Of a stretch of 64,000 bases of DNA, positions 20,101-53,039 are shown piece after piece. The stretch spans positions 1 through 64,000 of the forward strand of contig JAUCBJ010007147.1 of the NCBI GenBank assembly GCA_032718475.1, given 5' to 3'. The notes under the pieces were generated by a model. That model worked only from the letters and a program-made list of their open reading frames with translations. It made no database searches and was not told where the DNA came from. Made by a program: the position numbers and the translations under genes. Position 1 is the first letter of the stretch. The number at the start of each line of letters is the position of its first letter. The stretch comes from Nemertoderma westbladi (Eukaryota; Animalia; Xenacoelomorpha).

Positions 20101-22547
20101 CTTCCGGGTTGGTTTGGGAACACAGACGACTTCCATGTAGGTTCGGGAACATAGATGACTTCCGGGTTGGTTCGGAAACACAGACGACTTCCATGTAGGT
20201 TCGGGAACATAGATGACTTCCGGGTTGGTTCGGAAACACAGACGACTTCCAGGTAGGTTTGGGAACACAGACGACTTCCAGGTAGGTTTGGTAACACAGA
20301 CGACTTCCGGGTTGGTTTGGGAACACAGACGACTTCCATGTAGGTTCGGGAATATAGATGACTTCCGGGTTGGTTCGGAAACACAGACGACTTCCAGGTA
20401 GGTTTGGGAACACAGACGACTTCCGGGTTGGTTCAGGAACACAGGCGACTTCCAGGTTGGTTTGGGAACACAGACGACTTCCAGGTTGGTTTGGGAACAC
20501 AGACGACTTCCTGGTTGATTCGGGAACACAGACGACTTCCAGGTAGTTTCGGGAACACAGACACTTCCGGGTTGGTTTGGGAACACAGACGACTTCCAGG
20601 TAGGTTTGGGAACACATACGACTTCCATGTAGGTTCGGGAACACAGACGACTTCCAGGTAGGTTCGGGAACACAGACGACTTCCAGGTAGGTTTGGGAAC
20701 ACAGACGACTTCCGGGTTGGTTTGGGAACGCAGGCGACTTCCAGGTAGGTTTGGGAATATAAACGACTTCCAGGTTGGTTTGGGAACACAGACGACTTCC
20801 AGGTAGGTTTGGGAACACGGACGACTTCCTGGTAGGTTTGGGAACACAGACGACTTCCAGGTAGGTTTGGGAACACAGACGACTTCCAGGTTGGTTTGGG
20901 AACACAGACGACTTCCATGTAGGTTTGGGAACACAGACGACTTCCGGGTTGGTTCGGGAACACAGACGACTTCCAGGTAGGTTTGGGAACACAGACGACT
21001 TCCATGTAGGTTCAGGAACATAGATGACTTCCGGGTTGGTTCGGGAACACAGACGACTTCCAGTTTGGTTTGGGAACACAGACGACTTCCAGGTTGGTTT
21101 GGGAACACAGACGACTTCCAGGTAGGTTTGGTAACACAGACGACTTCCGGGTTGGTTTGGGAACGCAGGCGACTTCCATGTAGGTTCGGGAACATAGATG
21201 ACTTCTGGGTTGGTTCGGAAACACAGACGACTTCCAGGTAGGTTTGGGAACACAGACGACTTCCGGGTTGGTTCAGGAACACAGACGACTTCCAGGTAGG
21301 TTTGGTAACACAGACGACTTCCAGGTAGGTTTGGTAACACAGACGACTTCCGGGTTGGTTTGGGAACACAGACAACTTCCATGTAGGTTCGGGAACATAG
21401 ATGACTTCCGGGTTGGTTCGGAAACACAGACGACTTCCAGGTAGGTTTGGGAACACAGACGACTTCCAGGTAGGTTTGGTAACACAGACGACTTCCGGGT
21501 TGGTTTGGGAACACAGACGACTTCCATGTAGGTTCGGGAACATAGATGACTTCCGGGTTGGTTCGGAAACACAGACGACTTCCAGGTAGGTTTGGGAACA
21601 CAGACGACTTCCGGGTTGGTTCAGGAACACAGACGACTTCCGGGTTGGTTTGGGAACACAGACGACTTCCATGTAGGTTCGGGAACATAGATGACTTCCG
21701 GGTTGGTTCGGAAACACAGACGACTTCCATGTAGGTTCGGGAACATAGATGACTTCCGGGTTGGTTCGGAAACACAGACGACTTCCAGGTAGGTTTGGGA
21801 ACACAGACGACTTCCAGGTAGGTTTGGTAACACAGACGACTTCCGGGTTGGTTTGGGAACACAGACGACTTCCATGTAGGTTCGGGAATATAGATGACTT
21901 CCGGGTTGGTTCGGAAACACAGACGACTTCCAGGTAGGTTTGGGAACACAGACGACTTCCGGGTTGGTTCAGGAACACAGGCGACTTCCAGGTTGGTTTG
22001 GGAACACAGACAACTTCCAGGTTGGTTTGGGAACACAGACGACTTCCAGGTAGGTTTGGTAACACAGACGACTTCCGGGTTGGTTTGGGAACACAGACGA
22101 CTTCCATGTAGGTTCGGGAACATAGATGACTTCCGGGTTGGTTCGGGAACACAGACGACTTCCAGGTAGGTTTGGGAACACAGACGACTTCCGGGTTGGT
22201 TCGGGAACACAGGCGACTTCCAGGTTGGTTTGGGAACACAGACAACTTCCAGGTTGGTTTGGGAACACAGACGACTTCCAGGTAGGTTTGGGAACACAGA
22301 CGACTTCCGGGTTGGTTTGGGAACACAGGCGACTTCCAGGTTGGTTTGGGAACACAGACAACTTCCAGGTTGGTTTGGGAACACAGACGACTTCCGGGTT
22401 GGTTCAGGAACACAGGCGACTTCCAGGTAGGTTCGGGAACACAGACGACTTCCATGTAGGTTCGGGAACATAGATGACTTCCGGGTTGGTTCGGGAACAC
22501 AGACGACTTCCGGGTTGGTTCGGGAACACAGACGACTTCCAGGTAGG
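5114..22547 (+). repeat. ~17.4-kb satellite, 29-bp unit, ~600 copies, with higher-order structure
   Basis: Consensus ACACAGACGACTTCCAGGTAGGTT(T/C)GGGA. Variants include CCGGGTTGG, CCATGTAGG, CCAGGTTGA, a +6 form (GGGAAATGGGAA) and shortened forms. Copy number is length divided by 29. Confidence 0.98.
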
Positions 22548-23460
22548 CAGTTTACAAAAACAAGCGAAATGGCATGGAATCTATCAATCTGCTTACTGGG
22601 CGGAAAAGCCAACCAACCACCAAGGTTAAGGCTGAATCACCAGCCGATCGCCTCAATGGTTGGAAAGCCCACTTTGAAAAGCTCCTAAATAATGACAGGG
22701 TATTGCCTGATAACTTTATAGAAGTAAAAGTGTCTGAGTCTGTACTCCCAGATATTCCCATTGGCGATATCTCCTTTGCAGAAGTGAAGGCTGCTGCAAA
22801 GAGCATTAAGACCAATCGTGCCAGTGGAGTAGATGGTGTTCCCCCTGAGGTCTTTAAAATACCTGAGTGTTTAAAGCTCATCTATCCCATCATAGTAGAC
22901 ATGTACCGAACATCAAGAGTCCCACAAGAAATGAAAACAAATAAGTTGGTGCCAGTTCCCAAGAAGGGCAACCTAACACTCTATGGTTCTTTTCGGGGAA
23001 TCTCATTGATCTCGATTGCTGCAAAGCTATACAATAGGATTCTATTAAATCGCATCAGGGATCCCATTGAGAGACTGCTCCGTGGAAATCAGAATGGGTT
23101 CCGTAAAGGTCGTGGGACCATGGAGCCCATTTTGGCACTTAGAAGGATAATTGAAGAGTTATCAAAAAAGAAAGACAGGCATCTGGCTGTTATCTTTGTT
23201 GACTTCTTCAAGGCCTTTGATTCAGTCTCTCGCTCACGTATGTTCAGCATACTTTCATTATATGGGATTCCTGATGAAATTATTGCAGCAATCAGATCAG
23301 TATATGATGGTTCGACAACATTTGTGTCTACTGTTGACGGTGACACAGAACCATTTGAAGTGTTATGGGGCGTCCTCCAAGGAGACACACTTGCACCATT
23401 CTTGTTCATTATTGTGGTTGACTATGTTCTACGCATGTCCGTAGATCATTATAATGATAC
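22548..23460 (+). mobile_element. RTE-like non-LTR retrotransposon, N-terminal half of the RT region
   Basis: RASGVDGVPPE, VPKKGNL, FRGISL, QNGFRKGR, FVDFFKAFDSV, GVLQGDTLAPFLF. Breaks before the YADD motif. Confidence 0.9.
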
Positions 23461-24659: not shown

Positions 24660-26290
24660 CTATATTGTTGGCTTACTCTTGTTCAAAGTTGGTCCGCACC
24701 TATGTATGTAATTAGCATCGGCATGGATGCGATCGCTGTCGCTCCTATATGCCCTAAACACTGTCACCCGCAGCTGGGACAGCTCACATTGTCTGAAATG
24801 CTCACACGTGTCTTCGTCGTGTTCACTGTATTCGGGGGCCACCTGCGTCCTAAATCCATTAATTACTGACCTATGGGTATTCATTCTCTATCTTATACGC
24901 TGCTCCGTCTGTCCTATGTAAAACTCACTCGGGTGGTCCTTGCAGGAAATGAAGTACAGTACGTTGAAGCAGGTACAGTCGAACGCGCCCACCACCTTAT
25001 CCCCCTAAGGTGTCCTCTCACAATCCACTATCCAGGGGCAGGTCATACACCTGGGACGCCCACACTATCTATTCCCTTTCCATTCTGGTTTAGTCCGCTT
25101 TCTCACTAGCATGTTCTCCAATTTATATCCGTGCTTCGCTGTCATACCCATGTTCAACCCCCACTTCTCCAGCGTGCCCCCGTATTTCTTTATCACACCC
25201 TTCAGAGCTGATCTCGTTGAGCCACTCACCGCCAGAAATACCCTTCGGTAATCCACCCCAGTGTACTGTACTACCCCCTCCGCCTTCTCCCAACTGCTCA
25301 CCCCTCTAACCTCGTTAAGAAAATCCACGGGGTAGCCCATAGCCCAACAGTCTGTCAGGTATCTATCCCTCGCTACAATGAACTGGTCACCCCCCCCCCC
25401 CCCAGTCAATCTCCAGAACCTTTTCACTTGGCCTTTAACCACACCCTCCAGAACTCTATTGTCGTGGTAACTACTGTATGGAATCGGTAATTTATTGGAA
25501 AGGGGTTTAAAGTGCACCCCCGTGATAATACCACTGCCTATACCACTAACAAAAAGGTCCAAATCCAAAAATGTGGACTTCTCATGTGAGAAATCTACTG
25601 TAAACTGTATGGAATCCCTCCCAAATATAACCTTACTGCCCGCGTTGTATCGCTGAATTATGTTTGTTTTCTCGGTCGCAGTTAGAACCTTACTGAAAAT
25701 CCCCTCCCCGTCGTCAACAAACGTTTTAAAATAAATAGCACCAAACAGGGTAATTAACCCAACATGCTCGTGTATACGATGGACCGTCAGTACTGCAATA
25801 GACTTACCCGCTGGACCCCCCATACCCAACCCTTTAATTAATAAATAGAATTTACCACAAGCTTTAAAATAGGTATGAGTAATTACAAAATAAAGCAACG
25901 CATTAATCTGTTCCAAAGTATAACCCGAAATATCCACTAAATCCGGGTTCTCCTTTATTGATGAGGATATGGCGTCGGTCGCCAAAGCGTGGTCGACCGA
26001 CGGATACATGTCGACAACGTCGAGAGCCATAAAAGTAACTCCCTCATATGACGCCGTTGGTAGCTGCTTCTTTGCCGAAGCTGAATCCGGGACAAAATGT
26101 GGCGTGCATTCCAGCAACGGTTGGAGAATGGAATTTAGGAGTTGCGCTGCCCTCTCCGAAACAGTTCCCATAGCCGAAATAATCAACCGTGCTTTGGGTA
26201 AGCTGACCCCTTCCCCCCAATCGAGCGAGTCATCCGAGCGATCGGAACAAATATATTTTTAGATACAAGGGGAGTCCCCAGTGTTGAACC
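24660..26290 (-). mobile_element. Penelope-like element (Neptune-type) remnant: RT, Cys linker, GIY-YIG endonuclease
   Basis: RT motifs RLIIS, LDVVDMYPSV, GLGMG, FVDD, FLDL, FKP..YSSYH. The same frame continues through three TAG stops into CGRPRCMTCP, NVLYFISC, FYIGQT and RMNTHR. Confidence 0.88.
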
Positions 26291-26892
26291 TATCTTTCTA
26301 TAATCACAACAGCTTTTATAATTCATTAGATGATTACAACATAATAATTATAGTTTGAAATTGTCTAGAAAATTTTTCGTACACCACCGGGGCTACACTC
26401 ACACTAATTTATTATCAGACAGAACAAAAAGCTTTTACTTGACTCGTACTGTCTCCTACGACTTGCTTCACGGGCCGCCAGGCCCGTCTCTAGTAGAGTA
26501 GAGTAGAGTGATAATACTTGGCACAGAAAGTACTTCTTTGTTAGTTGGCCCTTCCTATTGAATGGATTATCAGGCCATCTCGTGTACATTTTTCATGAGT
26601 GCCAGCTGGTGTTTTTATCATTGCGCCTATGGCAATTTTCGTGTTTTGGGGCTATTTTTCGAAATAAAACAAGTTGAGATGTTTCAATTTAAACCGCGAT
26701 TTCTCAAGTACCCATAGAAATCTATTTTCATGGTTCATGCAAAATTTCATCAAAATCGTTAGAGCCGTTTTTGCTCTAGATCAGTAGCCAGTAGTCAGTA
26801 GCTTTTTTTTCTTACAGTAATCAAGTGTAACGACTTGCTTTCAAGACTAAGGACTTGCTAAATATTACTAAATCCATTTTGTTACTTTTCAG

Positions 26893-27783
26893 TCCAAGGA
26901 GATGGCTACCCGACAGCGAGCAGTGGCGCTTTATTTTATAGAAAAACTGGCGCTGCGTGCGGGAAACGAGAAGGACAAAGACCAAGCCGACACTGTCGGC
27001 TGCTGCAGTCTGCGTGTCGAACACATTAAACTGGTGGAAGAAGCGGATAAGTACATTGTAGAGTTCGACTTCCTCGGTAAGGATTCCATCCGATACCAGA
27101 ATTCCGTTGTTATCGAGAAACGCGTCTACAAGAACCTCAAACGGTTCATAGATGGTAAGAAAGGAAGTGACGAATTGTTCGACCAGCTGGATACAAGAGG
27201 ACTCAACAAGTACCTGAACCAGCTGATGGAGGGCCTCAGTGCGAAAGTGTTCCGAACCTTCAATGCTTCGATCACTTTGCAGGATCAGCTGGATAAACTT
27301 ACCGATCCCGAGGACACCATCCATGCCAAGATGTTGGCCTACAATCGCGCAAACAAGGAGGTTGCCATACTGTGCAACCATCAACGCGCCATTCCTAAAA
27401 CATTCGATAAGTCTATGGAGAACCTAGAAAATAAGATTAAGGAAAGGGAGACTGTGCTGGATGCGTTAAAGGCTGAATTCAAGAAGGCCAAGGTCGACTG
27501 TCAGAGAGCCGCAACCGCGTCAAATACCCTGCAAAAAGATAAGGCTAAGAAAAAGTACGAGTTGGCTGCTGAGCGGTTGGACAAGCTACGGTTGGAGCAA
27601 ACAGCCAAGGACGAGAACAAAACAGTCGCGTTGGGAACCAGCAAACTCAACTATCTTGACCCCCGTATAAGCGCCGCCTGGTCCAAGAAGCACGTGGTAC
27701 CCATCGAGAAAGTCTATAACAAAACCCAGCGCCAAAAGTTCCAATGGGCCATCGACATGGCCGACGAGACTTTTGTATTCTAG
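26893..27783 (+). CDS. TOP1: DNA topoisomerase IB, coding exon 2 (296 aa plus stop)
   Basis: KLALRAGNEK, DTVGCCSLRVEH, FDFLGKDSI, AKVFRTFNAS, ILCNHQR and GTSKLNYLDPRI. All five catalytic residues (R, K, R, H, Y) are present. Stop is at the expected position. Confidence 0.97.
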   Translation, partial: SKEMATRQRAVALYFIEKLALRAGNEKDKDQADTVGCCSLRVEHIKLVEEADKYIVEFDFLGKDSIRYQNSVVIEKRVYKNLKRFIDGKKGSDELFDQLDTRGLNKYLNQLMEGLSAKVFRTFNASITLQDQLDKLTDPEDTIHAKMLAYNRANKEVAILCNHQRAIPKTFDKSMENLENKIKERETVLDALKAEFKKAKVDCQRAATASNTLQKDKAKKKYELAAERLDKLRLEQTAKDENKTVALGTSKLNYLDPRISAAWSKKHVVPIEKVYNKTQRQKFQWAIDMADETFVF

Positions 27784-28490: not shown

Positions 28491-29063
28491 TGTTAGCGAA
28501 TTCAATTCCGCTAACCACCACATAAAGTTGGGAAAGCGGCGCCTTTAAGCAATATTGGGGAGTACGAGGTTGATTGCCAATCAACCTCGTATCACCGCAA
28601 TAAACGGGGATGACAAACCCCAAAGGGCCGCAAACAATGGAGGTCAGAGGTTAAGCCTCCGGGGAGAAGGAAAGTAACAGCAGCGGGGGGGGAAACACTC
28701 CCGCAGAGGTGAAGGCGAGAAGTAGGTTATCAACCAATGGGGGGACAGGAGAGGCATCATCTGAGTAGTAAGGCCAACACAGTGCAATATATTACCAATT
28801 GGTGTTTTATATTACAGTTTAGTTTACTCAGTTCAGTTAGGGCAGAACGGTAACTTTTATTACCGTCACCGCCACCATCACCAATTATATTACCGGTATT
28901 TACATTATACATCCAATAACTGTGCTTTGTGCTTCACTCTACTATATTCTATACATATCTGTTAATAACATCAGAACTCTTTCAATTTAACAACGAAGTC
29001 TTTCACACACGGCGGGGACGCGTAAATAAAATAAACCGGTCGGGATTCTCGGATCCCGTCACA
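28491..29063 (+). repeat. 5' LTR of element A
   Basis: TGTTAGCG...CCCGTCACA, closely matching 55729-56301. Confidence 0.95.
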
Positions 29064-29120
29064 GTAATAAAAGCCAACTACCCGAAACTGTGACTGCCAG
29101 CCACCAATAAGAAGTTAAAG

Positions 29121-32100
29121 ATGAGTCAGGAAGGAGAGACAACTACGCCGCGGACCCCGGAGGATACGAACGAAACGATCCGCGAGGCCGCGACGCGACG
29201 GTATCGACCCAGGAAGCCGGACTCGTCAACCCTGAATGATCCGGCACCCCAAGCGGAGGGTGGTCGTCTACCACAAAGAGAGGCGAGCGAGTCGGGGGAA
29301 AGGAGAGACAAGTCGACACATGACGGCGGTCGACATACCGATGTCGCCGGCCAGCCACAGGCCGAGGGCGATGGACGGCCCACCGGAATGGCGACGGTGG
29401 GGCCGCTGGTACGACGCCGAACACGGAGAGAAAGAGGGGATGTCGGCGACAGCACCGACCAGTCAGCGACCGGCTCCGACGAGCCTACAACGCAACCAGA
29501 AAGCAACTGAGGGAAGCCAAAGAAGGGGCGAAGATAGACAAGGTGAAGCTATAGAAGCGGCTAGGTGAGTCGAATAAACATTTTGATTATCTAGTGCGCT
29601 TTGGGCAGGGAGAACTAGCCAATGAGAGAGCGAGAGGGACGCCACTGAACTGTTTGAACTGTGGGAACGTAGGGGTATGGAGCCTGGTGTAGTGTACATA
29701 GGGCCATACTTAGTCGATGCCCGGGGAATTAAGTTAGTGGGTTGGAGGGGACCGCAGGAGGGCGAATCCGAGGTTAACCCCGAGGATTCGGTCTCGACGG
29801 TCGGCAAAAATTCCAGAAAGCGGGGGAAAGTCAGTAGGACGGGAAGGTGGCGGGAGTCCATCGCGACCGATAAGTCTGCTACATCCTCCGCAAAAGTAAG
29901 ACGGGTGCTAGAAATAGATCTGGCATGTCAGCTCGATCTGGTGGCGCTAGAACAGAGAGAATTAGAAGAGACAGTTGGAAGAAGGGAGTGTGTTACTAGA
30001 GAAAGAGAGAGAGCTGGCCAGAGAGAATAAAGAGAGGGCCGAGAGGGTCGTGAGAAACTTTAGGGAGTGTGAAGAAATAGGAATGAGGGAAAGGAAGGAG
30101 CAAGAAGAGCGAGAGGTGGCAGAGGCGAGTGAACGTAAGGAGCGTGAGGCGAGAGCGGAGAATGAACGTAAGGAGCGTGAGGCGAGAGAGGAGAATGAAC
30201 ACAAAGAGCGTGAGGCGAGAGGGGTGAGTGAGCGAAAAGAGCGCGAGGCGAGACGACTTGAGAGAGTTGCGAGAGAGGCGGAATTGGCCGAGCAGAGTTT
30301 GCGAGAGGACAGGGAGAGAGAGAGAATTGAAAAGCGTGTGCGGGACGACATGCATGCCCGGTTGAGGGGGCTTATGCAGTACCAGGCAAAACAGAAGCGC
30401 CGACTAGAACTGAGCAGATGGGGCTGTCAGAGAGCGAGGCTGGCTCGAGTAGTGTTTACGAGGAGCGAGAAGTTATGGAAACATTTATTAATACCCCACT
30501 TACAGGGACCGGACGACAGACCCAAGACTGGTGTGACTGTACGGGCGGGGGGGGGGGGGGGGGGGGGTAACAATAATAATACTGTAGAAAACGTTAATAT
30601 TAATAGTACCGGTACCGTAGTGGATAACCCTAACCAAACTTTCGTTGCAGGAAATAATACTTTGACCGGTAGTAGTAATTTAAACCCAAACCATTCTAAT
30701 ATAAATGTGGGAAATAGTTCAAATAATGCAGATTCGAGTTTGCAAAATAGTTCAAATAATTTGAATAATAGTCTAAATCCGAATATGCAAAATAATTCGA
30801 ATAATATAATTACGCAAAATAATTCAAATAATCTTAATTCAAACGAACAAAATAATCCCGTCTCTAATTTAGGTGTGCAAAATAATTCAATTGATTTAGA
30901 AGATAATATTGATAATGGTGCTATTAATATAAACGTGGCGGACGCGGATGGCCCGGCAAATTAGAGCCTGGTAGGCCATGTAGTCAGTAGGCAGGAGGTG
31001 GCGGGGGTGAGAAACCCCGATGAGGGCCTGGTAGGCCACGTAGCCAGTAGGCAGGAGGTGGCGGGGGTGAGAAACCCCAATAAGGGCCTGGTAGGCCATG
31101 TAGTTAGTAGGCAGGAGGTGGCGGGGGTGAGAAACCCCAATGAGGGCCTGGTAGGCCACGTAGTTAGTAGGCAGGAGGTGGCGGGGGTGAGAAACCACAA
31201 TGAGGGCCTGGTAGGCCACATAGTAGTAGAGGGAGAGGCGGGGGTGAACGGACCCAGCCGCAGTAGGGTTAGTGTGTCGACTAGAGAGGGGTGTCGAAGT
31301 GAAGTAAGAGATAATGAAGTGATAGGTGGCGAGTGGGGGGGGCTACGTAAGCCCCACAATGAGAGATCAGCGGCGAGAGGAGGGGGGCAGGGAGTGCCCC
31401 ACAGGCGTCGGCGGATAATGCGCGGGGCAAATTAGGTAAACCGCGGCACCCGGCGATGGAGAATAGTAGGGGGATTGCGAGTATCCCCAGCGGCATGCGA
31501 TCGAGCAGAGAGAGACAGGTTGATGTTGCGAGAGGGCGAGCGACGAGACGTCGAGCCCAATCAGAAGAGGGAAGAAGAACAGTGGAGTTTAACCGGGAGG
31601 TCGACGAGAGATCTCACGAACGGGGATACTGCACTGCAGAGAGAAGAAGGTAAGAGAGTAGAAGAAGTGTTGTCGCGAACGACAGGAGAGCGAGGACGGA
31701 TAGCGAGCTGTCGGTGGTAGAGATGGAGACGGAGAGTCAGTGGGGTCGAACTCTGGGAGATTGCCATCGTCCCGTGGAGACGCTACCTGATGAGGCGTAC
31801 CACACGCCGAGAGAGGGGTACAGGGTGTACCGGTACGAGGACAAGAGCAGTAGAGGGGATCGAAGAGAAACTTCCCGGCGGGATATACCTGCCGATAGAG
31901 AATACGGTAACCGCGGGGAGGATCATTCGAGAAGGATAAACTTCGATCCCGAGCGATACATACAGACTGCAGGACATACTGTAGGCCACACTGCACATAT
32001 TATAGGCCACGCTGGAAGAGATAATGTAGGCGAAAGGGTAGCGCGGACGACGGGATTAAACCCGGAAGTTGCGGAGTATATACCGGTAGTTAGGCCAGAA

Positions 32101-35004
32101 GTGGATAGGCCTATACCGGTACCAGCACAGCAGTGTGACTACAGCATGCGGGGACATAACATATACCCGGGGGAGAGGAGAGTTATTGCGGATAGGTGCA
32201 TGGGCCCCAATATATTAACATCAACCCCAGTATCAAACATACCGGTGGGGGGGGGGGGGGGGGGACAGGGTGACATTCCCCCATCACAATATCAACAATA
32301 TACCCCAATAGGAATAAGAACATCGAACCCCTTGGACGAGAACAGATCATGCGACACCGAAATATGGAGGGGGCCGCTACCCCCAATGATATATCCAAGT
32401 CAAAGAAAGGCAGCAGATAGGACGAACGGACCGCACCCAATGGGAGAATCTATACAGCATCCATCGAACCCATTGGAAGCACAAGCGATGGGAATGGCCA
32501 CATTAATCGATGCATTAAAAACCAGGATCGAGTTGCCACCCGTGGAACCGTTTAAATTCGATGGAAGCAGGCCGGAAGAATACCTGAAGTTTCGGCGCAT
32601 GTATAGTAATGAAATACTAACGAAGAATTTGACACAAGCGGAGTGCCTAAAATATCTGCAAGTGTATACAGGAGGCCCAGCATACGACATCGTGAGGCAA
32701 TACCAGGGCATCGAGGGCGGCTTCACGACAGCATGGCGGGCACTAGACAGGGAGTACGGGCACCCAGCCAAGATCATCCGGCAGACCCTTAGAGGGATAT
32801 CATCGGGTGGCCTACAGGATAACCCCGTGAGCATAAAGACATTTGCGAACAAAGTTGAGAAAGTGCTAATTGTGCTAAAGACGCTGGACGCACCATACGA
32901 ACTCAATGTGTCTAATAACATCACCACGATAGCGCAGGCACTGCCGATGTGGCTGCGCAACAAGTGGAGGAAGATTGCTTTCTCCACTCGAGACAAGAAG
33001 GGTGTGGAACCGGGCTTAGAAGAAATGTCGAGCTTCCTGAACTACGAAGCCGAATTAATAACGGACCCAGTCTATAGGGAGGATAGCCTGGGAAAGGGAC
33101 CAAAGACCGAATACCACAGGCCGAAACCAGAACATAACGCGGCGAACGCATTGCCAAAGCTCAGACAATCACTGCCATACGCGGCGACGCAAGGGACTGC
33201 TAGTCCACATGTAGCCGGGGGTAAGACCACATCATGGAGTGGACAGGGGAAAAATAACAACACAAATAAACATAACCCCAACACGCCCAGTAGGCCAAAC
33301 CCAAACAATAAGAACAGTAGGGACTTTGGTACGAATGCAAGTGCGATATGCAGTGCACTGTATAAGGACGGCTACAACCCAAAGAACAAATGCCAATTAC
33401 ATACAAACGCACTTCATCAGACCATGAACTGCAGATATTGGCAAGCACTACCCAGGGAAGATCAGGTAGAATACGCGAGGAGAAATGAAATTTGTTCTCG
33501 ATGTGTGATGAGTGGACACAGAGCTAACCAATGCAAGGAAACACCAATCAAATTCGGTCAAGGCAAAGGACAGACGATGGCAACAAGCACCGTAGGGGCT
33601 AAGAAGAGAGGAACGGTACTACTCGGGGTTGTACCAGTGCGGGTGATTGGGGAAGGCGATCGATCAGTAACCACGCTGATGCTGGTCGACAGTGGAGCAG
33701 CCTTCACATTGGTCGAGAATTGGGTGGCTGAGGAAATAGGATTGAGGACGAGGCCAAGTAGGATGGCGGTGACAACCATCTCCAGCAAAGATGAGGTCCT
33801 GGAGATGAGGACTGGTAGGTGCGGGATAGCAGCGATAGCACCGGGATGCGATTATGGGGCGACGATCGACCCCATCCAGGTGATAGAGTCGATAAATATC
33901 AACGCCAGGCAACCAACCAACATCGAGGTCGAACAATATAGATTCCTGGACAGTATCGACTTCTCAATACCAGAAGTGGACGTTAGGAAGGTATCCATTA
34001 TAGTAGGAATGGACTGCCCGACGGCCCACGAGAGAATACAAACGGTCTTCGGCGAAGACAGATAGCGTGACCCGGTGGCAATTCTCACACCATTCGGGTG
34101 GACGCTAACCGCCCCAATCAAAACCAATATACCATTCAGTGTAACCGAGACTTCAGGGTGCATGGTGCCAGGGACTGTTGAGGAGGTAAAGGAGAGGCCA
34201 GAGACGGGCAATAGGGGGAGACAGCTAGAAGTTGAAGCAACACCAAGTGAGTGGGCGGAGGAGAATGGCTTGGATGCAGAAGATTTAGAGACAATGGGTT
34301 GGAACAAGGATCCCAGCAAGTATCGGTATGGAGACGGAGAGGAGCGGATGGCAAAATGTCCGGAGGACAAACCGGAGGAGTGTCCGGTGGAGTGTCAGGA
34401 GGACAATAGTCCGGAGGAGTGTCCGGAGGAATGTTCAGAAGAGTGTCCGGAAGAGATGCCGGTCCGGTTGAGAGACATACCGACATGGGAGAGGCCGAGT
34501 AAGAAGACAAGATGGAAAGGGAAAGGATGTGAGAGGATTAGACCAGGGGCAGAGAAGCCCATGAGTAAAGATAATAAAGGAGTCAGGAAAGTAGAAGGCG
34601 TGTTGCATACGCACGCGGGACTGACAGAGTGTGAGGGGGCATTACATGGGCAGACATCGTGTATACTGAAGGATGAACGGGGGTCGTCGAGGCCTTTAAT
34701 GCCAGCGCACATATTAAGGGGGAGGCCAGCAGAGGTGGCATATAAGATTAAGGATGAAAACAGGGGCGGCATTATACCGCCGAACGACAAGTTGAAGGGT
34801 GGCACTTTGCCGCCAAGGGACGACTACGAGGAGATCAGAGACATAGAGAGTAGGCAGCACTTTCCAAATTTAAGGACAGGAGAAAAGGGAAGGTCAATTC
34901 CAAGAGAGTTGGAATTGACAAGGAGAGCGGAGCGGAGAATCAGAGGTCCTATTAGAGGGAGCACCATAGTTGTGAAGAGTTTAGTCGTCCAAGTTTTGGA
35001 CTGA
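29121..35004 (+). pseudogene. Element A Gag-protease with diverged pol remnant; stops and frameshifts
   Basis: Colinear with element B: Gag ELPPVEPFKFDG, knuckles CQLH..H....C and CSRC....H....C, protease LVDSGA. RT and RNase H are absent. LTECEG..LMPAHIL resembles the integrase C-terminal part of B. Confidence 0.88.
30963..31225 (+). repeat. 60-bp coding tandem repeat in Gag of A (a 39-bp equivalent lies at ~41980-42200 in B)
   Basis: GAGGGCCTGGTAGGCCACGTAGTTAGTAG core encoding EGLVGHVVSRQ. Confidence 0.9.
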
Positions 35005-35099
35005 GGGGGTGGGATTGAGGGCGAGATGCCCTTCCCACACATAAAATATAAAATATAAAAAAATAATAAATAAAGGAAGAGTAAGTAGGCAGATGGAAG

Positions 35100-35750
35100 T
35101 TGGTAAGAGTTAGGCAGATAGTAAGAGTAGGTAGTTAGAGGGTACTTAGTACCGTCAGATAGTAAGAGTAGGTAGTTAGAGGGTACGTAGTACCATTAGT
35201 TAGTAGGAGTTAGTAGTTAGAGGGTACGTAGTACCGTTAGTTAGTTAAGTAGTTAGAAGGTACATAGTACCGATTAGTTATAGGGAGTTAGAAGTTAGTA
35301 AGAGGGTATGTAGTAAAGGTATGTTAGTTGAAGAGAGTTAGAGTTAGTAAGAGGGTATGTAGTACCGTTAGTTAGTTGAAGAGAGTTATAGTTAGTAAGA
35401 GGGTACATTGTACCGTTAGTTAGTTAGTGGAGTTAGAGTTAGTAAGAGGGTACGTAAGTACCAGTTAGTTAGTTAGCAGAGTTAGAGTTAGTAAGAGGGT
35501 ACGTAGTACCATTAGTTAGTTAGTGGAGTTAGAGTTAGTAAGAGGGTACGTAAGTACCGGTTAGTTAGTTAGCAGAGTTAGAGTTAGTAAGAGGGTACGT
35601 AGTACCGTTAGTTAGTTGGTGGAGTTAGAGTTAGTAAGAGGGTACGTAGTACCGGTTGGTAGAAGTTAGTTAGAAGTTAGTAAGAGGGTACGTAGTGCCG
35701 GATAGTAAGAGTTAGTGGTAGAAGGGTATGTATAATATAAATATTAGTTA
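35100..35750 (+). repeat. Degenerate GTTA/GGTACGTAGTACC tandem array after pol
   Basis: Repeats of AGAGGGTACGTAGTACCGTTAGTTAG. Same position as the array at 48670-49290 in B. Confidence 0.85.
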
Positions 35751-37802
35751 GTAGTGAGTAGCGAGAGGGGGGCATATGAGTACAGCTGGATAAATCGTGT
35801 AGGCCACGCGACGCATACTGTTGTACTGCACAAGCCCACAGAGTAGGCCAGAATGTGGATTATGAAGTAGAGTAATCCATTGGCAATAGTAAGTAGTAGC
35901 ACAGTAGTAGGATTGAATTAAATTATAATATTAAAATAGAATAGGGCTAGAAAATTAGACAAATTATGGTAACAGTAGAAAGTAAATTCTGGAACATAAT
36001 TAAAGTAACGGACAGAATTGTAATTTAGGGCACAATTTGACAGTTTCAGAAACAAAGTAGTAAAATTTAGGCTATAACTCGAAATTAAGTAGGAAATAGG
36101 CCATTGTCGAACTGTACAGACCATCTTAACCTTATCACTCATCTGTACTGCGCCTTGGCAAGGCACCACCTTACAGGTGAGCGAGTGAGAGAGTTCGGAA
36201 TGGCGGGGAAACTGATCAGGAAGAGAAAGGCGGAGTCAGGAGGAAAAGAAATACTGGTGGATTTCACCAAGAGGCATCCGGAAGAGAAGACGAGGGGATA
36301 CTACGAGCGGTTAGAGAGAGGTCATGCAGCACGAGCGCTACAGGACCATTTCAGGGAGGTGCACGAACAGCGGCTGGTCGGGACCTACGGGACGCCGTCG
36401 CTGGACAACGCGATCTTCGAGCATTTCCACTACGTGGTGAAAGGAGACGAGGCGAAGTTCGGGATTCCGAAGTACGCGAGAAAGCCACCGAGGAAGGATT
36501 GGAAGAGGTTCGTAGAGTCCGTCAGCAGAGAAGGGTACATGGTCCTGGACAATGAGGGGACTGTGGAAGACGAGGAGTGTTCGAGGAGAGGTGACGGCGA
36601 GGGTCAGGAGCCTGAAAGCAGACAAGACCAAAGGAGAGGCAGTGACCAGGAAACGACCAAGGGAGGAGGACGATAGAGGGAAAGAGTTGAGGTGGTTCCC
36701 AAAGGCAGGTGGAACGAACTAAGACATTCATGTGATATGCCTGGAAAATACAATCAAAGTAAGTACTATAGTCATACAACCTTCTTCTCAATTAGCTACT
36801 GGGACTGGGGACCAATAGACTATAATACTATCACGGACGAGACACTGGACGACATCACACTTCTTGAGTGCGACGGCACAGGAGGGGGGTGAAACTCGTC
36901 GGGAGTGAGTGGGAGAGATAGGGGTTGAGTTGTAGTGCGGAGAGAGTGCGGGTGCAATTCAAGTGTGGGGGGGGGGGGGAGAAATAAGAGGCTGAGTGAG
37001 GGACAGGGAAGTCCGAGAGTTAGAGCGGAAGTAAGGAGAAGTAGAGGAGAGTCAGGGTTAGAACAGAGTAGAGTTAGTGGTGAAAGTGTTGGGGAAACAA
37101 AAGTCGTGTGAGAGGAGCGCACGATCGGCTCGACACGGGACGCCAGGTAAACAGGGTAGCGATATCATACCCATAGGGGGCGGTCTGGAAAGCCGGCTCC
37201 GAAAAAATAGTTCCACCCCACACTCGATGCTAGGTTAGCGTATTCAATTCCGCTAGCCAGGCCCACACAGAGTTGGTTTTAAGCAATATTGGGAGCACGA
37301 GGTTGGTTACCAATCAACCTCGTGTCACCCCAATAAGCGGGGACAATAGGCCCTAAGGGAACACACACAGCGGGGGTCAGAGGTCATACGTCCGGGAGGG
37401 AGAGAGAGACAGCAGCGGGGGGAAGCACTCCCAGGGAGATGGGAGGGTGACAAGTGAGTTATTAGCCAATGGGGGGAAGGCATCGGCTGAGTAGTGTAAT
37501 GCGGCCAACCGGTGCAATATATTACCATATCACTGTATCATTCATTCACTCTTCAGTAAGTCAGTTAGTTAGGGTGGTACCGAGACTCTTATCACCGTCT
37601 CTGTCCACTGCCATCATCATCACTTAGTACGTTACCGGTACTCATCCACTCGCATTAGTAAACTGTGCTTATACTTCATATATTATACATACGTTACCAA
37701 CAATAGCCAGAGTTAATAACATCAGGACTCTTTTCATGCACACGGCGGGGACGCGTAGTTAAGAAACCGGATAAACCGGGATCCTCGGTGGATCCCGTCA
37801 CA
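35750..37802 (+). mobile_element. Element C remnant: ORF3 leader, internally deleted ORF3 (ATG 36200), 3' UTR and 3' LTR (~37233-37802)
   Basis: ORF3 homology jumps from its N-terminus to its C-terminus near 36590. The LTR ends GGATCCCGTCACA and differs from the A and B LTRs. PPT is deleted and no matching 5' LTR is present. Confidence 0.8.
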
Positions 37803-38370
37803 TTAGTAGAGAAGTTAGTAGGAGGGTACGTATAGTGCCGTTAGGAGTAAGAGTTAGTGGTAGGAGGATATGTATAATATAAAATATAGTGAGAGTTAGT
37901 AGAGATTAGTTTGGAAGTTAGTAGAGCTAGTAGTGCGTAGCGAGAGGGGGGCACGTGGGTACAGCTGGATAAATCGTGTAGGCCACGCGACGCATACTGT
38001 TGTACTGCACAAGCCCACAGAGTAGGCCAGAATGTGGATTATAAAATAGAATAATCCATTGGCAGAATACTGATAGCACAGTAGTAGGATTAAATTAAAT
38101 ATTAAAATAAAATAAAATTAGAAAATTAGACAAATTATGGTAACAGTAGGAGAAATATTCTGGAACATAATTTAAGTAATGGACAGAATTACGAAATTTA
38201 GTACAATTTGGCACTTTAGGAAATTAGGGTAGGAAAATTAGGCGATAACCTAACACAGAGCAATAGATAGGCCATTATCGAACTGCACAGACCATCCTAA
38301 CTATATCACTCGTCTGTACTGCGCATTGGCAAGGCACCACCTTACGGGTGAGCGATTGAGAGAGTTCGAA

Positions 38371-39432
38371 ATGGCGGAGAAACTGGTCAGAAAGAGAAAG
38401 GCGGAGTTAGGAGGAAAGGAGATACTGGTGGATTTCACCGAGAGGCATCCGGAAGAAAAGACAAGGGGATACTACGAGCGGTTAGAGAGGGGTCACAAAG
38501 CACAAGCGCTGCAGGACCATTTCAGGGAGATGCACGAACGGCAACTGGTCGGGACCTATGGGACACCGTCGCTAGACAACGCAATCTTTGAGCATTTCCA
38601 CTACATGGTGAAGGGAGACGAGGCGAAGTTCGGGATTTCGAAGTACCCAAAGGAGCCACCGAGAAAGGATTGGAAGATGTTCGTAGAGTCCGTCAGCAGG
38701 GGAGGATACATGGTCCTAGACGACCGTGGAAGATGAGGAAGGTTCGAGAAGAGGGTTGGCAGGGTCGGCCAGAACCATACTCCTACATTTGGCCACGCCA
38801 AATGGGGACATTTTCCTATTCGACCTGGGAACGTATGGGAAGAAGAATGGGCCAAAGTTGAACCGGTTGTCAAAGGCGGTGCAAACCCTAGTAAGAGAGA
38901 AGTCAACGACAAAGGTGGGATCGGCGATCCGCGACGATGCAGAGACAATCATCGGTCCGGACACCCCCAACCTCCTGGACATGCAGACGGTCTACATGGC
39001 TATGAGAGCACCAGACGGGTTGGGACTAGTGGAGAACGCAGGCCATTGTGGAGCGGTGGCGATGGGCCAGCTAATGGGGCTCGTGTGTCACAAACCAATG
39101 GACTGGGGTAAGTTCAGAGAGGAGTACGGAGCGGAGTTAGCGAACTCGCTGAAGTGGGGAGTGAGGCCAGGGAAACAAGAGGTGTATCAATTCTGGAGAG
39201 GAGCGATAAAGGTATATCAGAAGCGATATATCCTGCAGGAGGACTGGATAATGATGGGTTTGCTAAACCTATTCATGACCATCGTCATCGAGAGAGAACC
39301 AACAGCATTCCTGCTATCGGGATCACCCCTGAACTACAGAAGAGCCTTCAAGGCGGCTTTCGAGGGTTTGGTAGACCACCCGTGGCTGAAGGGCGAGTCG
39401 GTATACTATAACTGCCGACATCTAGTAGACGG
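38371..39432 (+). pseudogene. ORF3 of element A, 5' part (exonuclease-like), frameshifted and interrupted by B
   Basis: Colinear with B ORF3 up to RHLVDG. Small deletion near 38724. Confidence 0.88.
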
Positions 39433-40052
39433 TGTTAGCTTATTCAATCCCGCCAACACCCCATAAAGTTATAAGCCGATAAGCAATATTGGGAACCACG
39501 AGATTGGGCAATTAACCAACTCGTGCCATCCCAATAAGAGTGGGAAGGAAGCACACAACAAGGGTCAGGGGCCAAACCCCTATCCCAGAGGAGATAGGTG
39601 GAGTGAACGGGAATACTCCACGGGGCGCCAACAAGGGTATTAACCAATCAGAGGGGGGAAAGGCATCGATTGAGTAGCAATAAGGCCACCGTGCAATATA
39701 ACCAATAACCTATTAATCAGTGATTCAGTTATCTCAGTGCAGCAGTGCTAGCGTAGGTTGGTAGTCAATTAGTTTAGTTAGGGGATCACGGGACTTTAGT
39801 TACCGTATCCCGCCTTGTACACATTATATCTATATCTATATCCTATGCCCTATTATTATTATACACCGAACTTCAGAACTCAGTTACTTTGTTTCATCCT
39901 TATACACGGCGGGGACGCGTGGACTAAATTACCACACCGGATAAATCGGGATCCCTCCTGGATCCCATCACAGTAACTAAATCCGAGGAAGAAGCCCAGT
40001 TGAACATCAAGAACTGCAGCCTAGCTAGCCGAACCATCAGCCACCAGTTGAG

Positions 40053-43000
40053 ATGAGTGAATCGGGCGAGACACCGACGCGGACCCCGGACGAAGATCAA
40101 ACGATCCGCGAGGCCGCGACCAAGCGATACAGGCCCACGACGCCGGAGCCATCGATAACGGGCGAACCGGAAGTCCAGAACGAGGAGGGTCTGGAACCCG
40201 AAGTCGAGCCAAGGGAAAGGGAGAGCGAGACGGAGGGAGAAGGAGATGAGTCGACACGGAACGGAGAGCGGCGCGCCGATGTCGCCGGCCAGCTACCGGC
40301 CGAGGGCGACGAGCGACCCACCGAAACGGCGACGGTGGGGCCGACGGTGCGACGCCGGACGCAAAGAGACGGAGGAGAGATCGGCACCGATATCGCCGGC
40401 CAGCTACAGGCCGAGGGCGACGGACGGCCCACCGGAACGGCGACGGTGGAGCCGCCGGTACGACGTCGAACCCGGAGGGACGGAGGAGAGGTCGGCGACG
40501 AGGACGTCGGGGTCTCCGATCGACTTCGACGGGCCTACATCGCGACCCGGAGACTACTAGAGAAGGCCAGAAAAGGGAAAACGGTAGACGAGGTGAGACT
40601 GAGAAAGCGACTAGGTGAGTCGGATAGACACTTTAATTATCTGATACGTTTTGGGCAGAGAGAACTAGCCGAAACGAGAGCACGTGAGGTTGCCGGGGAA
40701 CTGTTTGAACTATGGGAATGTGGGAGTATGGAACCTAGCGTAGCGTCAGTGTACATAGGGCCATACTTGGTCGATGCCCGGGGAGTAAAACCAGTGGGTT
40801 GGAGGGGACTCGAAGGGGGCGAATCCGAGGTTAACCCCGAGGATTCGGCCTCGTCGGTCGGAGAAAGCTCCGGGAAGCGGGGGAAAGTTAGTAGGTCGGG
40901 AAGGCGGGGGAAGTCCGTCGTAACCGATAAGTCTGTTACATCCTCCGCGAAAGAAAGAGCGGTGAGAAAAATAGGTGCCGCATACCGTCTCAGCATGGCA
41001 GAGCAAGGTCAGAGAGAAATGGAGAAACGGCTAGAGGAGGGGAGAGTGCGGTTAGAGAGGGAAGCGGCATTGATTAAAGAAACCGGAGAGAGGGCCGAAA
41101 GGGCTTTGAAAAGCCTAAGGGAGTATGATGAGATAGAGGAAAGGGAGTGTAGGGAGCGTGAGGCGAGAGAGGAAAGGGAACGTAAGGAACGTGAAAGGGA
41201 ATGCAAGGAGTATGAAGCGAGAAGGGAAAAGGAACGCAAGGAGCGCGAAGTGAGACGAAGGGAGAGTATTAAGAGTGCAGCAGAGTCGGCCATCAGGGAC
41301 ACCCAGGAGTGTGAGAGGAGACTGGCAGTGGCTGAAAAGGAGCACAAGGAATTAGAGAGACGGCAGAGTGAGTCTGCGGGAAATAGAATTAGACGGGAGC
41401 ACGAGATGGAATTCGTGCGAGCGACGCCGTCTGAAAGCGGGGCCGGCTCGAGTATTTTTGAGGAGCCGGAGGCCGTAGACACATTTATTAATACCCCACT
41501 GACAGGGACCGCGCGACAGACCCAAAACTGGTGCGAGCGTACGGGCGGGGGGGGGGGGGGGGTAATAATAATAATGGTACAGTAGACGTTGTTAATATTG
41601 ATAATACCGTATGGGACAACACTAATCAAACCTTTGTTACAGGAAATACTTTGCCTAGTGGTAGTAATTTAAATTTAAATCAGAATAATCCCAATATTAA
41701 TGTAGGAAATAATTCTAATATTGACGTAGTTACGCAAAATAATTCAAATAATCAAAATAATAACCCAAATTCGAACCTACAAAATAATTTAAATAACGCA
41801 GTTACGCAAAATAATTCGAATAATTTAAATAATGACCTATGCCCGAATTTACAAAATAATTCAGATAACGTAGTCGCGCAGAATAATACAAATGATTTTG
41901 TTTCAAACGAGCAAATTAATTCCGTTTCCAATATGGGTGCTATTAATGTAAACACATCGGGCCTACATAACCGGGCGGAAGAGGGCCTGGTAGGTCACAT
42001 AGTCGGTAGCCAGACGGATGAGGGCCTGGTAGGCCACGTAGTTAGTAGACAGGGAGCAGAGGGCCTGGTAGGCCACGTAGTTAGTAGACAGGGAGCAGAG
42101 GGCCTGGTAGGCCACGTAGTTAGTAGACAGGGAGCAGAGGGCCTGGTAGGCCACGTAGTTGGTAGGCAGGGAGTAGAGGGCCTGGAAGGCCACGTAATAG
42201 CAGGGGGAGAGGCGGGGGTGAATAGACCCGACCGCAGTAGGGTTGATGTGTCGACTAGAGAGGTATATAATAGTGGGGAGAGAGGTAGCGAAGTTAGATG
42301 TAGCGAGTGGGGGGGGGCTACGAGGACCCCACAACAGAGAGTTAGCGGCGAGAGGGGGGGGGGGGGGGGGGCAGGGAGTGTCCCACAGCCGTCAGCGGAT
42401 AATGCGAGGGCCGAAATAGGTAAACCGCAACAACCGGCGACGGAAAGTAACAGGGGGATTGCGGGTATCCCCAGCGGCGTGCTACCGAGCAGAGAGAGAC
42501 AGGTTGACGTCCCGAGAGGGCGGACGAAGCGTCGAGCCCGATCAGAGGAGGGAAGAAGAACAGTGGGGTTTAACCGGGAGGTCGATGAGAGATCTCACGA
42601 GCGGGAATATTCCACTGATAGGAGAAGAAAGGAAGACAGTAGTAGAAGTATCGCCGCGAACGATAGAAGAGCGAGGACGGATAGCGAGCCGTCGGTAGTC
42701 GAGATGAGAACGGAGAGTCGGTGGGGTCGGACTCCGGGAGATTGCCGTCGCTCCGGAGAGATGCGATCCGGTGAGATGCATCACACGCCGAGAGAGGGGT
42801 ACACGATGTACCGGTACGAAGATGAGGACAGAAGAGAGGGGGGTCGAAGAGAAACTTTCCGACGGAATATACCTACCGATCGAGAATACGGTAGCCGCGG
42901 GGAGGATTATTCGCGAAGAATAAACTTCGATCCCGAGAGACACATGCAGACTGTAGGACATACTGTAGGCCTTACTGCACATACCATAGGCCATATTGAG

Positions 43001-46000
43001 AGAGGCTATGTAGGCGATAGGATAGCGCGGATGACGGAATTAAACCCGGAAGTCGCGGAATACATACCGGCGAGTAGGCCAGAAGCTGATAGGCCTATAC
43101 CGGTACCAGCACAGCAGTATGACTACAGCATGCAGGGACATAACATATACCCAGGGGAGGGGGGAATTATTGCGGATAGGTGCATGGGCCCCAACATATT
43201 AACATCAACCCCATTACCAAACATACCGGTGGGGGGGGGGGGACAGGGTGACATTCCCCCATCACAATATCAACAATATACCCCGATGGTAGCAAAAACA
43301 ACGAGACCCTTGGACGAAAACAGGTCGTGTGACACAGATATATGGAGGGGGCCGCTACCCCCGATGACGTACCCAAGCCAGAGAAAATCAAGAAATAGGA
43401 CAGACGGAACGCACCAGGCAGGGGAAACTATACAGCACCCGTCGAATCCATTGGAAGCGCAGGCGATATGGATGGCCACGTTGATCGATGCTCTGAAAAC
43501 GAGGATCGAGTTACCACCCGTGGAACCATTTAAGTTCGATGGGAGTAGGCCGGAAGAATATTTACAGTTTCGGCGAATGTATAGTAACGAAATACTAACA
43601 AAAAACTTGACGCAGGCGGAGTGCCTAAAGTATCTACAAGTGTACACGGGAGGCCCAGCATACGACATCGTGAGGCAATATCAGGGAATAGAGGGCGGCT
43701 TCACGACAGCATGGCGGGCACTGGATAGGGAATACGGGCACCCGGCCAAGATCATCAGGCAGACGCTGAGAGGCATAACATCGGGTGGCCTACAGGATAA
43801 CCCCGTTAGCATTAAGACGTTTGCAAACAAAGTCGAGAAGGCGCTGATCGTGCTGAAGACGCTAGACGCGCCATACGAGCTCAACGCGTCCAATAACATC
43901 ACCACGATAGCGCAGGCACTACCAAACTGGCTGCGCAACAACTGGAGGAAGATCGCTTTCTCCACTCGAGACAAGAAGGGTGCGGAACCGGGTTTAGAAG
44001 AAATGTCAAACTTCTTAAATTACGAGGCTGAACTAATAAAGGACCCAGTCTATAGTGAAGATAGCCTGGGAAAGGGACCAAAGGCGGATCACTACAGGCC
44101 GAAACCAGAGCACAATACATCAAACGCATTGCCGAGGCTCAGGCAATCATTGCCATACGCAGCGACGCAGGGGACTGCAAGTCCACAGGCAAACGAAGAT
44201 AAGACAACATCATGGAACGGACAGGGGAACAATAACAACATGAATAAACATAACCCCAGTACGTCCAGTAGGCCAAACCCAGTCAATAAGAATAGTAGGG
44301 ACTTTGGTACGAATATAACTGCGATACGCAATGCATTGTATAAAGAGGGCTACGACCCAAAGAGCAAATGCCAGTTACACGCAAATGCGCTTCATAAAAC
44401 CATGAACTGCAGGTAATGGCAGGCGCTACCGAGGCAAGACCAGATAGATTACGCGTCGAGCAATAAAATCTGCTCGCGATGTGTGAAGAGTGGACACAAG
44501 GCCAGGGAATGCCAAGAGAAGCCGGTCAAGTTTGGCCAAAGGAGAGGCCAAACGATGGCAACGAGCACGGTAGGGGCGAAGAAGAGAGGCACGGTGTTAC
44601 TTGGAGTAGTACCGGTGCGAGTGATCGGGGAAGGCAATCGATCAGTAACAACACTAATGCTGGTTGATAGTGGAGCTGCCTTCACATTAGTCGAGGAATG
44701 GGTAGCCGAAGAAATAGGATTGAGAACAAGGCCAAGCAGAATGGCGGTAACAACCATCTCTAGCAAAGATGAGATCCTAGAGATGAGGACAGGACGGTGC
44801 GCAATTGCAGCAGTGGCACCAGGATGCGATTATGGGGCAACCATCGACCCCATCCAAGTAATAGAGTCAATTAACATCAATGCCAGGCGGCCAACCAACA
44901 TCGAGGTCGAGCAATACAAATTCCTGGACGACATTGACTTCTCGATCCCAGACGTGGACGTTAGGAAGGTATCCATCATAGTAGGAATGGACTGCCCGAC
45001 GGCCCACGAAAGAATGCAAACGGTCTTCGGCGAAGACAAGCAGAGTGACCCGGTGGCCATATTAACACCATTCGGGTGGACGCTGAGTGGTCCAATTAAG
45101 AGCAAGATACCATTCAGGATGTCGGAGACATCAGGATGCATGTTCGCGGGAACAATGCAGGAAATGGGTGATGAGGGAGCAGAGGAGCAGCTTAAAAGAC
45201 TGCTCAGACAAGACTTTGAGGGACTGAAAGAGACCGGGGTCGGGACCTCGGTAGAAGACAAGCAGGCTCTACAAAGCGTGGAGGAATCGATGACGTGTGA
45301 TGAGGGGCGGTATACAATAGGAATGGTATGGAAACTACCGAAAATACCGCTACCCAATAATAGAGGGATGGTACTCACGAGACTCCGCAAGCTGAAACAA
45401 ACACTAAAACGGAGCCCCGAGAAGAACGAGTACATTCACAAAACGATTAAGAAGTACGTTGAGAAAGGATGGGCCGTGGAGTTACCGGTCGACGAGCCGA
45501 ACACGGACAGGACATACTACCTGCCACTCCACGTAGCTTTAGACCCAAAGAAAGGTCAACTTAGGATGGTAGTCGATGCATCGGCAAAGACCGACGGAAA
45601 GTGCTTAAACGACTACCTACTAGAGGGCCCAAACATATACAATTCGGGCATAGAAGTACTACTTAGATTTAGGAATGGGAAACACGCCTTCACGTGCGAC
45701 ATAGAAGGCATGTTCAACCAAGTCCGTGTAACAGAGGAAGATAGCGACAGTCAACGCTTCTTATGGTATAACGGCGAGGAAGAACCGCCTATAATACCGG
45801 CATATAAGATGGTAGTACAAAACATGGGGGCCAAGTCGTCCTCATTTACGACGACTATGGCAGTGAGAGACACGGTCAAGGGGAAGGAAGATAGATACAG
45901 CAGTAGGGCCGTCGATATGATCCGACGCGGCTTCTACGTAGACGACGGTATGGAGTCTGGAAATACGGTTGAGGAGATACTGGAAACAGGGCGCGAGGTT

Positions 46001-48574: not shown

Positions 48575-48669
48575 AGTGGAGTTACAGAAAAGTTTAGTCG
48601 TCCAAGTTTTGGACTGAGGGGGGCAAGACGCCCTTTCCACACAAATAAAATAAAAATAAAATAAAAAAT

Positions 48670-49290
48670 AGTTAGTTAGTTAGTAGGTACGTAGTGCCTA
48701 GAGTTAGAGAGTAGGTACGTAGTACCTAGAGTTAGTTAGTTAGTTAGTAGGTACGTAGTACCTAGAGTTAGTTAGTAGGTACGTAGTGCCTAGAGTTAGA
48801 GAGTTAGTAGGTACGTAGTACCTAGAGTTAGTTAGTTAGTAGGTACGTAGTGCCTAGAGTTAGAGAGTAGGTACGTAGTACCTAGAGTTAGTTAGTTAGT
48901 TAGCAGGTACGTAGTACCTAGAGTTAGTTAGTAGGTACGTAGTGCCTAGAGTTAGAGAGTTAGTAGGTACGTAGTACCTAGAGTTAGTTAGTTAGTAGGT
49001 ACGTAGTGCCTAGAGTTAGAGAGTTAGTAGGTACGTAGTACCTAGAGTTAGTTAGTTAGTAGGTACGTAGTGCCTAGAGTTAGTTAGTTAGTAGGTACGT
49101 AGTACCTAGAGTTAGAGAGTCAGTTAGAGGGTACGTAGTACCGCCAGTTAGAGTTAGAGTTAGAGGGTACGTAGTACCGCTAGTTAGAGTTAGAGTTAGA
49201 GGGTACGTAGTACCGCCAGTTAGAGTTAGAGTTAGTAGGTACGTAGTACCGTTAGTTAGAGTTAGAGGGTACGCAGTACCATTAGTTAGA
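48670..49290 (+). repeat. Tandem array between pol and ORF3 of B
   Basis: About 20 units of (GTTA)n-GTAGGTACGTAGTACCTAGA, each a small imperfect palindrome. Confidence 0.9.
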
Positions 49291-49775
49291 AGAGAGAGAG
49301 TAAGAGGTAAAAGGGGTAAATAGGATATAGATATTAGTTAGCAGTAAGTAGAGTTAGTAGCGAAAGGGGGGCATGTGAGTACAGCTGGGTAAGTCGTGTG
49401 GCCACACGACGTATACTGCTGTACTGCATAGGCCCACAAAGTAGGCCAGAATATGGATTAGAGAATAGAATAATCCATAGGCAGTAATAGGTAGTAAGAC
49501 AGTAGAATTAAAATAAATAGAATAGGGCTGAAAGTTAGAAAATAGTGGCAACACAAGGGAAGTCGTTCTAGAACATAATAAAAGTAACGGACAGAAATTG
49601 TAAATTAGGCTCATTTACTAGCTTCAAAATTAATTAGGTTAAATTTAGGCTAAAAGGCGCAATTAAGTAGAAAGTAGGCCATTATCGAACCGTACGAAAC
49701 ATCTTAATACATCACTCATCTGTATAGCGCCTTGGTAAGGCACCACCCTGCAGGTGAGCGAGTGTAGTGTTCGGA

Positions 49776-53001: not shown

Positions 53002-53039
53002 ATGCTATCTTCTTACCGGGAAGATAGCATGGGGGGGAG
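53002..53039 (+). promoter_or_regulatory. Hairpin plus polypurine tract abutting the 3' LTR of B
   Basis: ATGCTATCTTC...GAAGATAGCAT stem, then GGGGGGGAG|TG. Equivalent in A at ~55691-55728. Confidence 0.8.

Follow-up and report, generated by a model that had tools for sequence, protein, structure and literature searches.

How reverse transcription starts when the expected tRNA site is missing was the question raised by two retrotransposons of Nemertoderma westbladi. BEL/Pao elements are among the main animal groups with long terminal repeats (LTRs), and a tRNA start of their replication is assumed, not measured (PMC8742986). The two elements lie in a 64,000-bp stretch of contig JAUCBJ010007147.1 (assembly GCA_032718475.1, positions 1 to 64,000; the window) and were designated A (28491–56301, 5-bp target duplication CACAA) and B (39433–53579, 5-bp target duplication GACGG), B being inserted within A; all features of A and B given below are on the plus strand. 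An earlier note on this DNA had proposed that both prime from their own LTRs. Self-priming like that of Tf1 was the best reading of these BEL/Pao-type sequences (probability about 0.8), and the proposed tRNA-free mode was supported on three counts: the register of the pairing, the compensatory differences that separate A from B, and own-versus-swapped pairing in distant loci.

The LTR ends were set independently of the pairing, from LTR pairs, target duplications and a purine tract before each 3′ LTR. The 5′ LTR of A (28491–29063) was 97.4% identical to its 3′ LTR (55729–56301; 18 differing columns), which directly follows the purine tract, and the 5′ LTR of B (39433–39972) showed three differences from its 3′ LTR (53040–53579), again with the tract directly upstream. 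In A, the first 10 bases after the 5′ LTR (29064–29073), a primer-binding site of self-complementary type, were the perfect complement of 28854–28863 within the LTR, the predicted 3′ end of a self-primer. The first 9 bases after the 5′ LTR of B (39973–39981) were likewise the perfect complement of 39795–39803. These were the longest perfect own-LTR complements at offset 0; by comparison, a 10-nt complement to LTR A occurred at 18 of 37,584 window positions (0.05%) and a 9-nt complement to LTR B at 107 of 37,584 (0.3%). The two partners occupied a homologous place in the LTRs, directly before CGT, and two positions had changed on both sides between A and B with pairing kept. The complement broke off at the LTR edge. 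Because the 3′ base of the partner lies opposite the base with which the internal sequence begins, DNA synthesis would begin with the last base of the LTR. Neither leader, read as far as the gag ATG, contained a TGG, and no tRNA gene was found within the 64-kb window. Thus the two complements, the compensated differences, the stop of the pairing at the LTR edge and the lack of a TGG tRNA-type site, all claimed in the earlier note, were confirmed.

Two more LTRs of the family were present: C (37233–37802, plus strand), of 3′ type, lacking a purine tract and running on into internal sequence, and D (63474–64000, minus strand), cut by the window end and followed by host DNA; hence neither offers a primer site. 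Their primer-equivalent segments were at 37586–37595 (C) and 63701–63692 (D). In all four LTR types an initiator-like motif, T(C/T)AGTTAGGG, preceded the segment's 3′ end by 28–29 nt, bearing out its reported presence upstream, whereas the distance of a TATA-like motif varied from 62 to 111 nt across the same LTRs. From this constant spacing we infer that transcription starts at T(C/T)AGTTAGGG; the candidate start region of A is 28833–28842, with its A at 28835, 29 nt from the primer end, and in B a start near 39776 is predicted. A primer longer than that of Tf1, as had been suggested, gains indirect support from the spacing, but additional pairing upstream of the primer was weak in a shuffle test (7/300 for B, 167/300 for A). 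Just 3′ of the segment, beside the predicted cut, a strand (28864–28873 in A) was predicted to pair with the invariant GGCGGGGACG (29011–29020) in A, B and C, the helix of C keeping 10 pairs through G-U substitutions; in D it did not form in that fold but did so in a shorter one. A hairpin before the LTR end (29041–29058 in A) was predicted in A, B and C with different loops. It sits at the place of the U5-IR-like stem of Tf1, a stem reportedly needed in that element.

Each of the four LTRs also contained, right after GACGC, a bulged copy of the primer site, a second and competing partner for the segment that is new and was absent from the earlier account. These "mimics" lie at 29022–29032 (A), 39919–39929 (B), 37755–37765 (C) and 63518–63508 (D). 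The mimic covaried with the primer segment across A–D: 25 of 28 pairs were Watson-Crick, and this arrangement scored highest among 24 permutations, which is also the strongest result that four related sequences can yield. In folds without the leader the mimic state dominated (0.76–0.87 for five of six 5′ ends tried, 0.16 for one), and with the leader B switched to the primer site (0.91–0.98) and A did not (0.00–0.01). With 80 nt of leader included, the primer pairing probability of B was 0.83–0.98, and its primer state was favoured over the mimic state by 2.2–3.3 kcal/mol. A NATAAA hexamer preceded the LTR end by 24–28 nt. In A, AATAAA is overlapped by the mimic; in B, C and D the last NATAAA is outside it. 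If GATAAA serves as a poly(A) signal, the 3′ copy in the RNA would include the mimic. All four LTRs also carry a U3 hairpin (GAGGTTG...CAACCTC, 28543–28602 in A), maintained with letters that differ from one LTR to the next.

The family was abundant in its host, with 5619, 3412 and 3463 contigs aligned to 3 kb in three sequencing runs. On the self-priming reading, the site should be close to GTGATAAGAG in C-type copies and to GTGATTAGAG in those of D type. Contigs running on from C-like LTR ends had a majority start of GTAA in all three runs, from two studies (12, 16 and 13 contigs), with row agreements of 0.52, 0.54 and 0.47 in which subfamilies and 3′ flanks are pooled. Contig joints between the end of LTR C and a leader were seen in the three runs. 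The GTAA majority fits a family-wide site of non-tRNA type.

Pairing of this kind was also found in distant BEL/Pao relatives. A profile scan gave 80 loci at 30–37% protein identity; 61 had a gag start, 56 of these with a candidate ACA end and five without. An automated scan scored every candidate end for contiguous or GT-AG-spliced complements, with swapped LTRs as the control. Of the 56 own-LTR tests, 17 (from 14 of 46 families) gave complements of 11 bp or more, against 9 of the 336 swaps; at 10 bp or more the counts were 25 of 56 and 41 of 336. With hand-picked starts, a selection that is partly circular, at least 10 bp paired in 21 of 28 own-LTR cases versus 19 of 756 swaps, several of the latter between kin. 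In L003, L008, L017, L032, L046 and L080 the LTR ends were set by the divergence of the two copies. A TGG-type site was visible by eye in L031, L049 and L066, which scored 0, 6 and 8 in the scan. In L017, L046, L048, L053, L067 and L074 the primer site lay 2–9 nt past the LTR end, as did the TGG sites of L031 and L066; the window elements have no such spacer.

The relatives were of two types. Contiguous complements were found in L017, L046, L048, L053 and L067 among others; spliced ones, mostly with GTAAG donors, included those of L004, L007, L008/L009, L010, L012, L016, L032, L033 and L074. The 168-nt GT-AG intron found in L010 was exactly missing from its sister L005, whose 11-nt complement was contiguous (L010, 7779–7947; L005, 1–40). 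The two LTR copies of L080 differed likewise, one having the 3′ end of the intron and the other a contiguous match (130–160; 6910–6945). The loss in L005 and the apparent one in L080 are as expected if the intron was spliced and then lost through reverse transcription. A spliced primer was also sought in the window LTRs, and the best junctions gave 5 (A) and 7 (B) Watson-Crick pairs, fewer than the 10 and 9 of the unspliced segments; judged by its sequence, the window family is of the unspliced type. The primer segment of L067 (about 556–625), like that of the window family, paired in the fold with an internal partner close to the end of the LTR. In L023/L024 one element was repeated head to tail in tandem, the period being 6138 bp. 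LTR pattern scans of viral and metagenome contigs and a protein scan of viral contigs gave no match. Self-priming is probably widespread in BEL/Pao and not confined to the window family.

The proposed mechanism is as follows. Transcription would start about 28–29 nt upstream of the 3′ end of the segment. Since this places the segment close to where the transcript is predicted to begin, it would pair there with the sequence that immediately follows the 5′ LTR, and the junction would be held by the adjoining helix and by the LTR-end hairpin. A cut just 3′ of the segment, made by RNase H after ...AC if Tf1 is a guide, would leave the primer end, from which DNA synthesis would copy the LTR, beginning with its last base. 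The internal mimic would keep the segment masked as long as there is no leader; it would also cover the segment's second copy, at the RNA's 3′ end, and so keep that copy off the primer site. For many distant relatives, the proposal is that splicing removes an intron from the LTR and thereby puts the same primer together.

Several results weigh against self-priming. In the window family there are only two phased pairs of segment and site, and their helices are short and A/U-rich. The mimic state of A was favoured by 1.5–4.2 kcal/mol and its primer helix had a probability of 0.00–0.02 once at least 40 leader bases were included; the masked state is thus the predicted preference of A, the copy without pol, and this, with the comparative nature of all the evidence, is the chief weakness of the self-priming reading. 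(In A, an 8-bp inverted repeat, 29058–29065 with 29087–29094, would cover the LTR end and the first primer-site bases and so stabilise the masked state; it was not seen in B.) The C-like contigs gave GTAA, not the predicted GTGA, the third base being A in a mixed majority row. Among the relatives, 39 of 56 scored below 11, many of their contigs being without the LTR part; two of five unspliced ones failed to fold the primer helix (L053, 0.00; L067, 0.17); and L019, one of the 17 scan matches, rests on a candidate end other than the hand-picked one.

The same pairing could instead form a regulatory RNA switch, acting in polyadenylation, translation or packaging, with priming left to something else. 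Such a switch would account for the second covarying LTR partner in all four types, for two states within about 4 kcal/mol of each other and for the overlap of the A mimic with AATAAA. It would not account for the exact start of the leader partner, in A, B and many relatives, on the base that follows the LTR, and the leaders show no other primer site; in B, C and D, moreover, the last NATAAA is clear of the mimic. We regard the switch as unlikely, while giving it more weight than the alternatives that follow.

A more improbable reading makes the LTR match secondary and has the site bind some small RNA of the host, such as half of a tRNA. Priming by half-tRNAs is described for Copia lineages (PMC6317226), Osser, Bryco and Bianca being elements of this type, and GT or AT begins most of the hand-picked sites, which a shared host RNA could explain. 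Past these first bases the sites diverge widely and each tracks its own LTR, as in the partly circular hand-picked comparison above, and a host RNA would not be expected to yield matches that span splice junctions with GTAAG donors. Chance, or a template-switch by-product without function, seems the remotest reading: although the matches are A/T-rich and 9–10 nt long, and A and B are related and so not independent, the background rates, the exact register and the compensatory changes speak against it, as does the recurrence of the pairing at 30–37% protein identity, and the swap control disfavours it. Tf1-like self-priming stays the preferred reading.

The assignment of A and B to BEL/Pao, made in the earlier note, was upheld by their protein domains. 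The gag-pol of B (40053–48574) had the Pao-type order of DUF1759, protease, reverse transcriptase (RT), Peptidase_A17, integrase and DUF5641, and is broken by one frame change and two in-frame stops. In A, the gag-protease region (29121–34164) contained DUF1759 and an aspartyl protease; the RT-RNase H-integrase part was missing, the alignment of A to B jumping from 34164 to 34974 where B runs from 45142 to 48587. PF05380 was present in all 120 homologues among the matches listed, the best of which had 38% protein identity, and B formed a long branch in a FastTree of 101 sequences built without named reference elements. TG...CA LTRs, the purine tract and the 5-bp target duplication were all found. 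The 18-nt host-tRNA site described by the ICTV, the international committee for virus taxonomy, was not, there being no TGG in either leader; this site was taken as a described trait and not as one that delimits the family, and its absence led to the label "BEL/Pao-type by proteins, departing from description". The elements share with the Tf1/sushi group a primer site complementary to their own LTR-derived RNA, but have Pao domains and not a Ty3/gypsy-type polyprotein; they work like Tf1, on this reading of their sequences, but are no members of Tf1/sushi.

Between the integrase and the purine tract of B was an extra open reading frame (ORF) of 855 codons (49758–52325), with partial copies near 36089–36676, 38254–39466 and 53585–55038. 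Its N-terminal part resembled a 3′-5′ exonuclease by language-model features alone (Atlas feature score 0.93), a lead only, and its C-terminal part had Cys/His motifs. It had no Pfam, PDB or homologue match that would confirm an exonuclease; one 19-residue repeat-like match was found, and the predicted fold had a pLDDT of 34.5. Outside the nest of LTR elements, a 29-bp satellite formed a tandem array of ~17 kb (about 5000–22550) with long stop-free minus-strand frames, and fragments of long interspersed nuclear elements (LINEs) also preceded the nest. The C-terminal core of DNA topoisomerase I, intron-free, was found amid transposon debris at 26872–27783 (plus strand). An RT-like ORF at 25065–26258 (minus strand) had no Pfam match and looks Penelope-like by eye, from its motifs.

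If true, self-priming would explain the many BEL/Pao members without a visible tRNA site and give annotators a usable signature, and the proposed primer ends are exact and testable. Both the decoy and the split primer suggest that RNA folding and host splicing control how reverse transcription begins. A wider model is tentative, and we put it at somewhat less than even: a large part of BEL/Pao would be tRNA-independent, with two off-switches for the self-primer (in relatives, an LTR intron whose removal builds the primer; in the window family, a decoy displaced by the primer site) and an element-encoded exonuclease that might trim the primer. No report of self-priming in BEL/Pao was found in the open literature, though subscription papers, Repbase, GyDB or supplements may hold such a remark, and the primer terms tried had no match in PMC3118150, PMC554778 and PMC12440569.

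Compared with known systems, the window elements agree with the ICTV description of Belpaoviridae in domain set and order, LTRs and purine tract; they differ in lacking the 18-nt site at which a host tRNA is described to prime, and B, at ~14 kb, has its extra ORF (PMC8742986). An extra ORF after pol, a possible 3′-5′ exonuclease, recalls the DEDDy exonuclease ORF3 of bdelloid Juno and Vesta (PMC5408684), a comparison in which the exonuclease assignment of the window ORF is again a lead only. Published accounts describe self-priming in Tf1/sushi and Tcn1 and predict it in Copia TAR (PMC6317226). In Tf1 the first 11 bases anneal to the primer site, and the RNase H cut falls between bases 11 and 12 (PMC7175516, PMC4600332). 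In the TAR lineage of Ty1/copia (Houba, Osr-1) it was, as here, predicted from sequence alone (PMC6317226), though those elements are Copia and belong to plants. Tf1/Tf2 of Schizosaccharomyces pombe, Tj1, Tf1/sushi and Tcn1 (Ty3/gypsy) likewise have a site after the LTR that is complementary to their own RNA. They differ from the window elements in superfamily; here the predicted primer is 28–29 nt long with only its last 9–10 bases fully paired, an internal partner competes for it, and in relatives an LTR intron splits it. With the Tf1 type in Ty3/gypsy and TAR in Copia, BEL/Pao would be the third LTR superfamily with self-priming.

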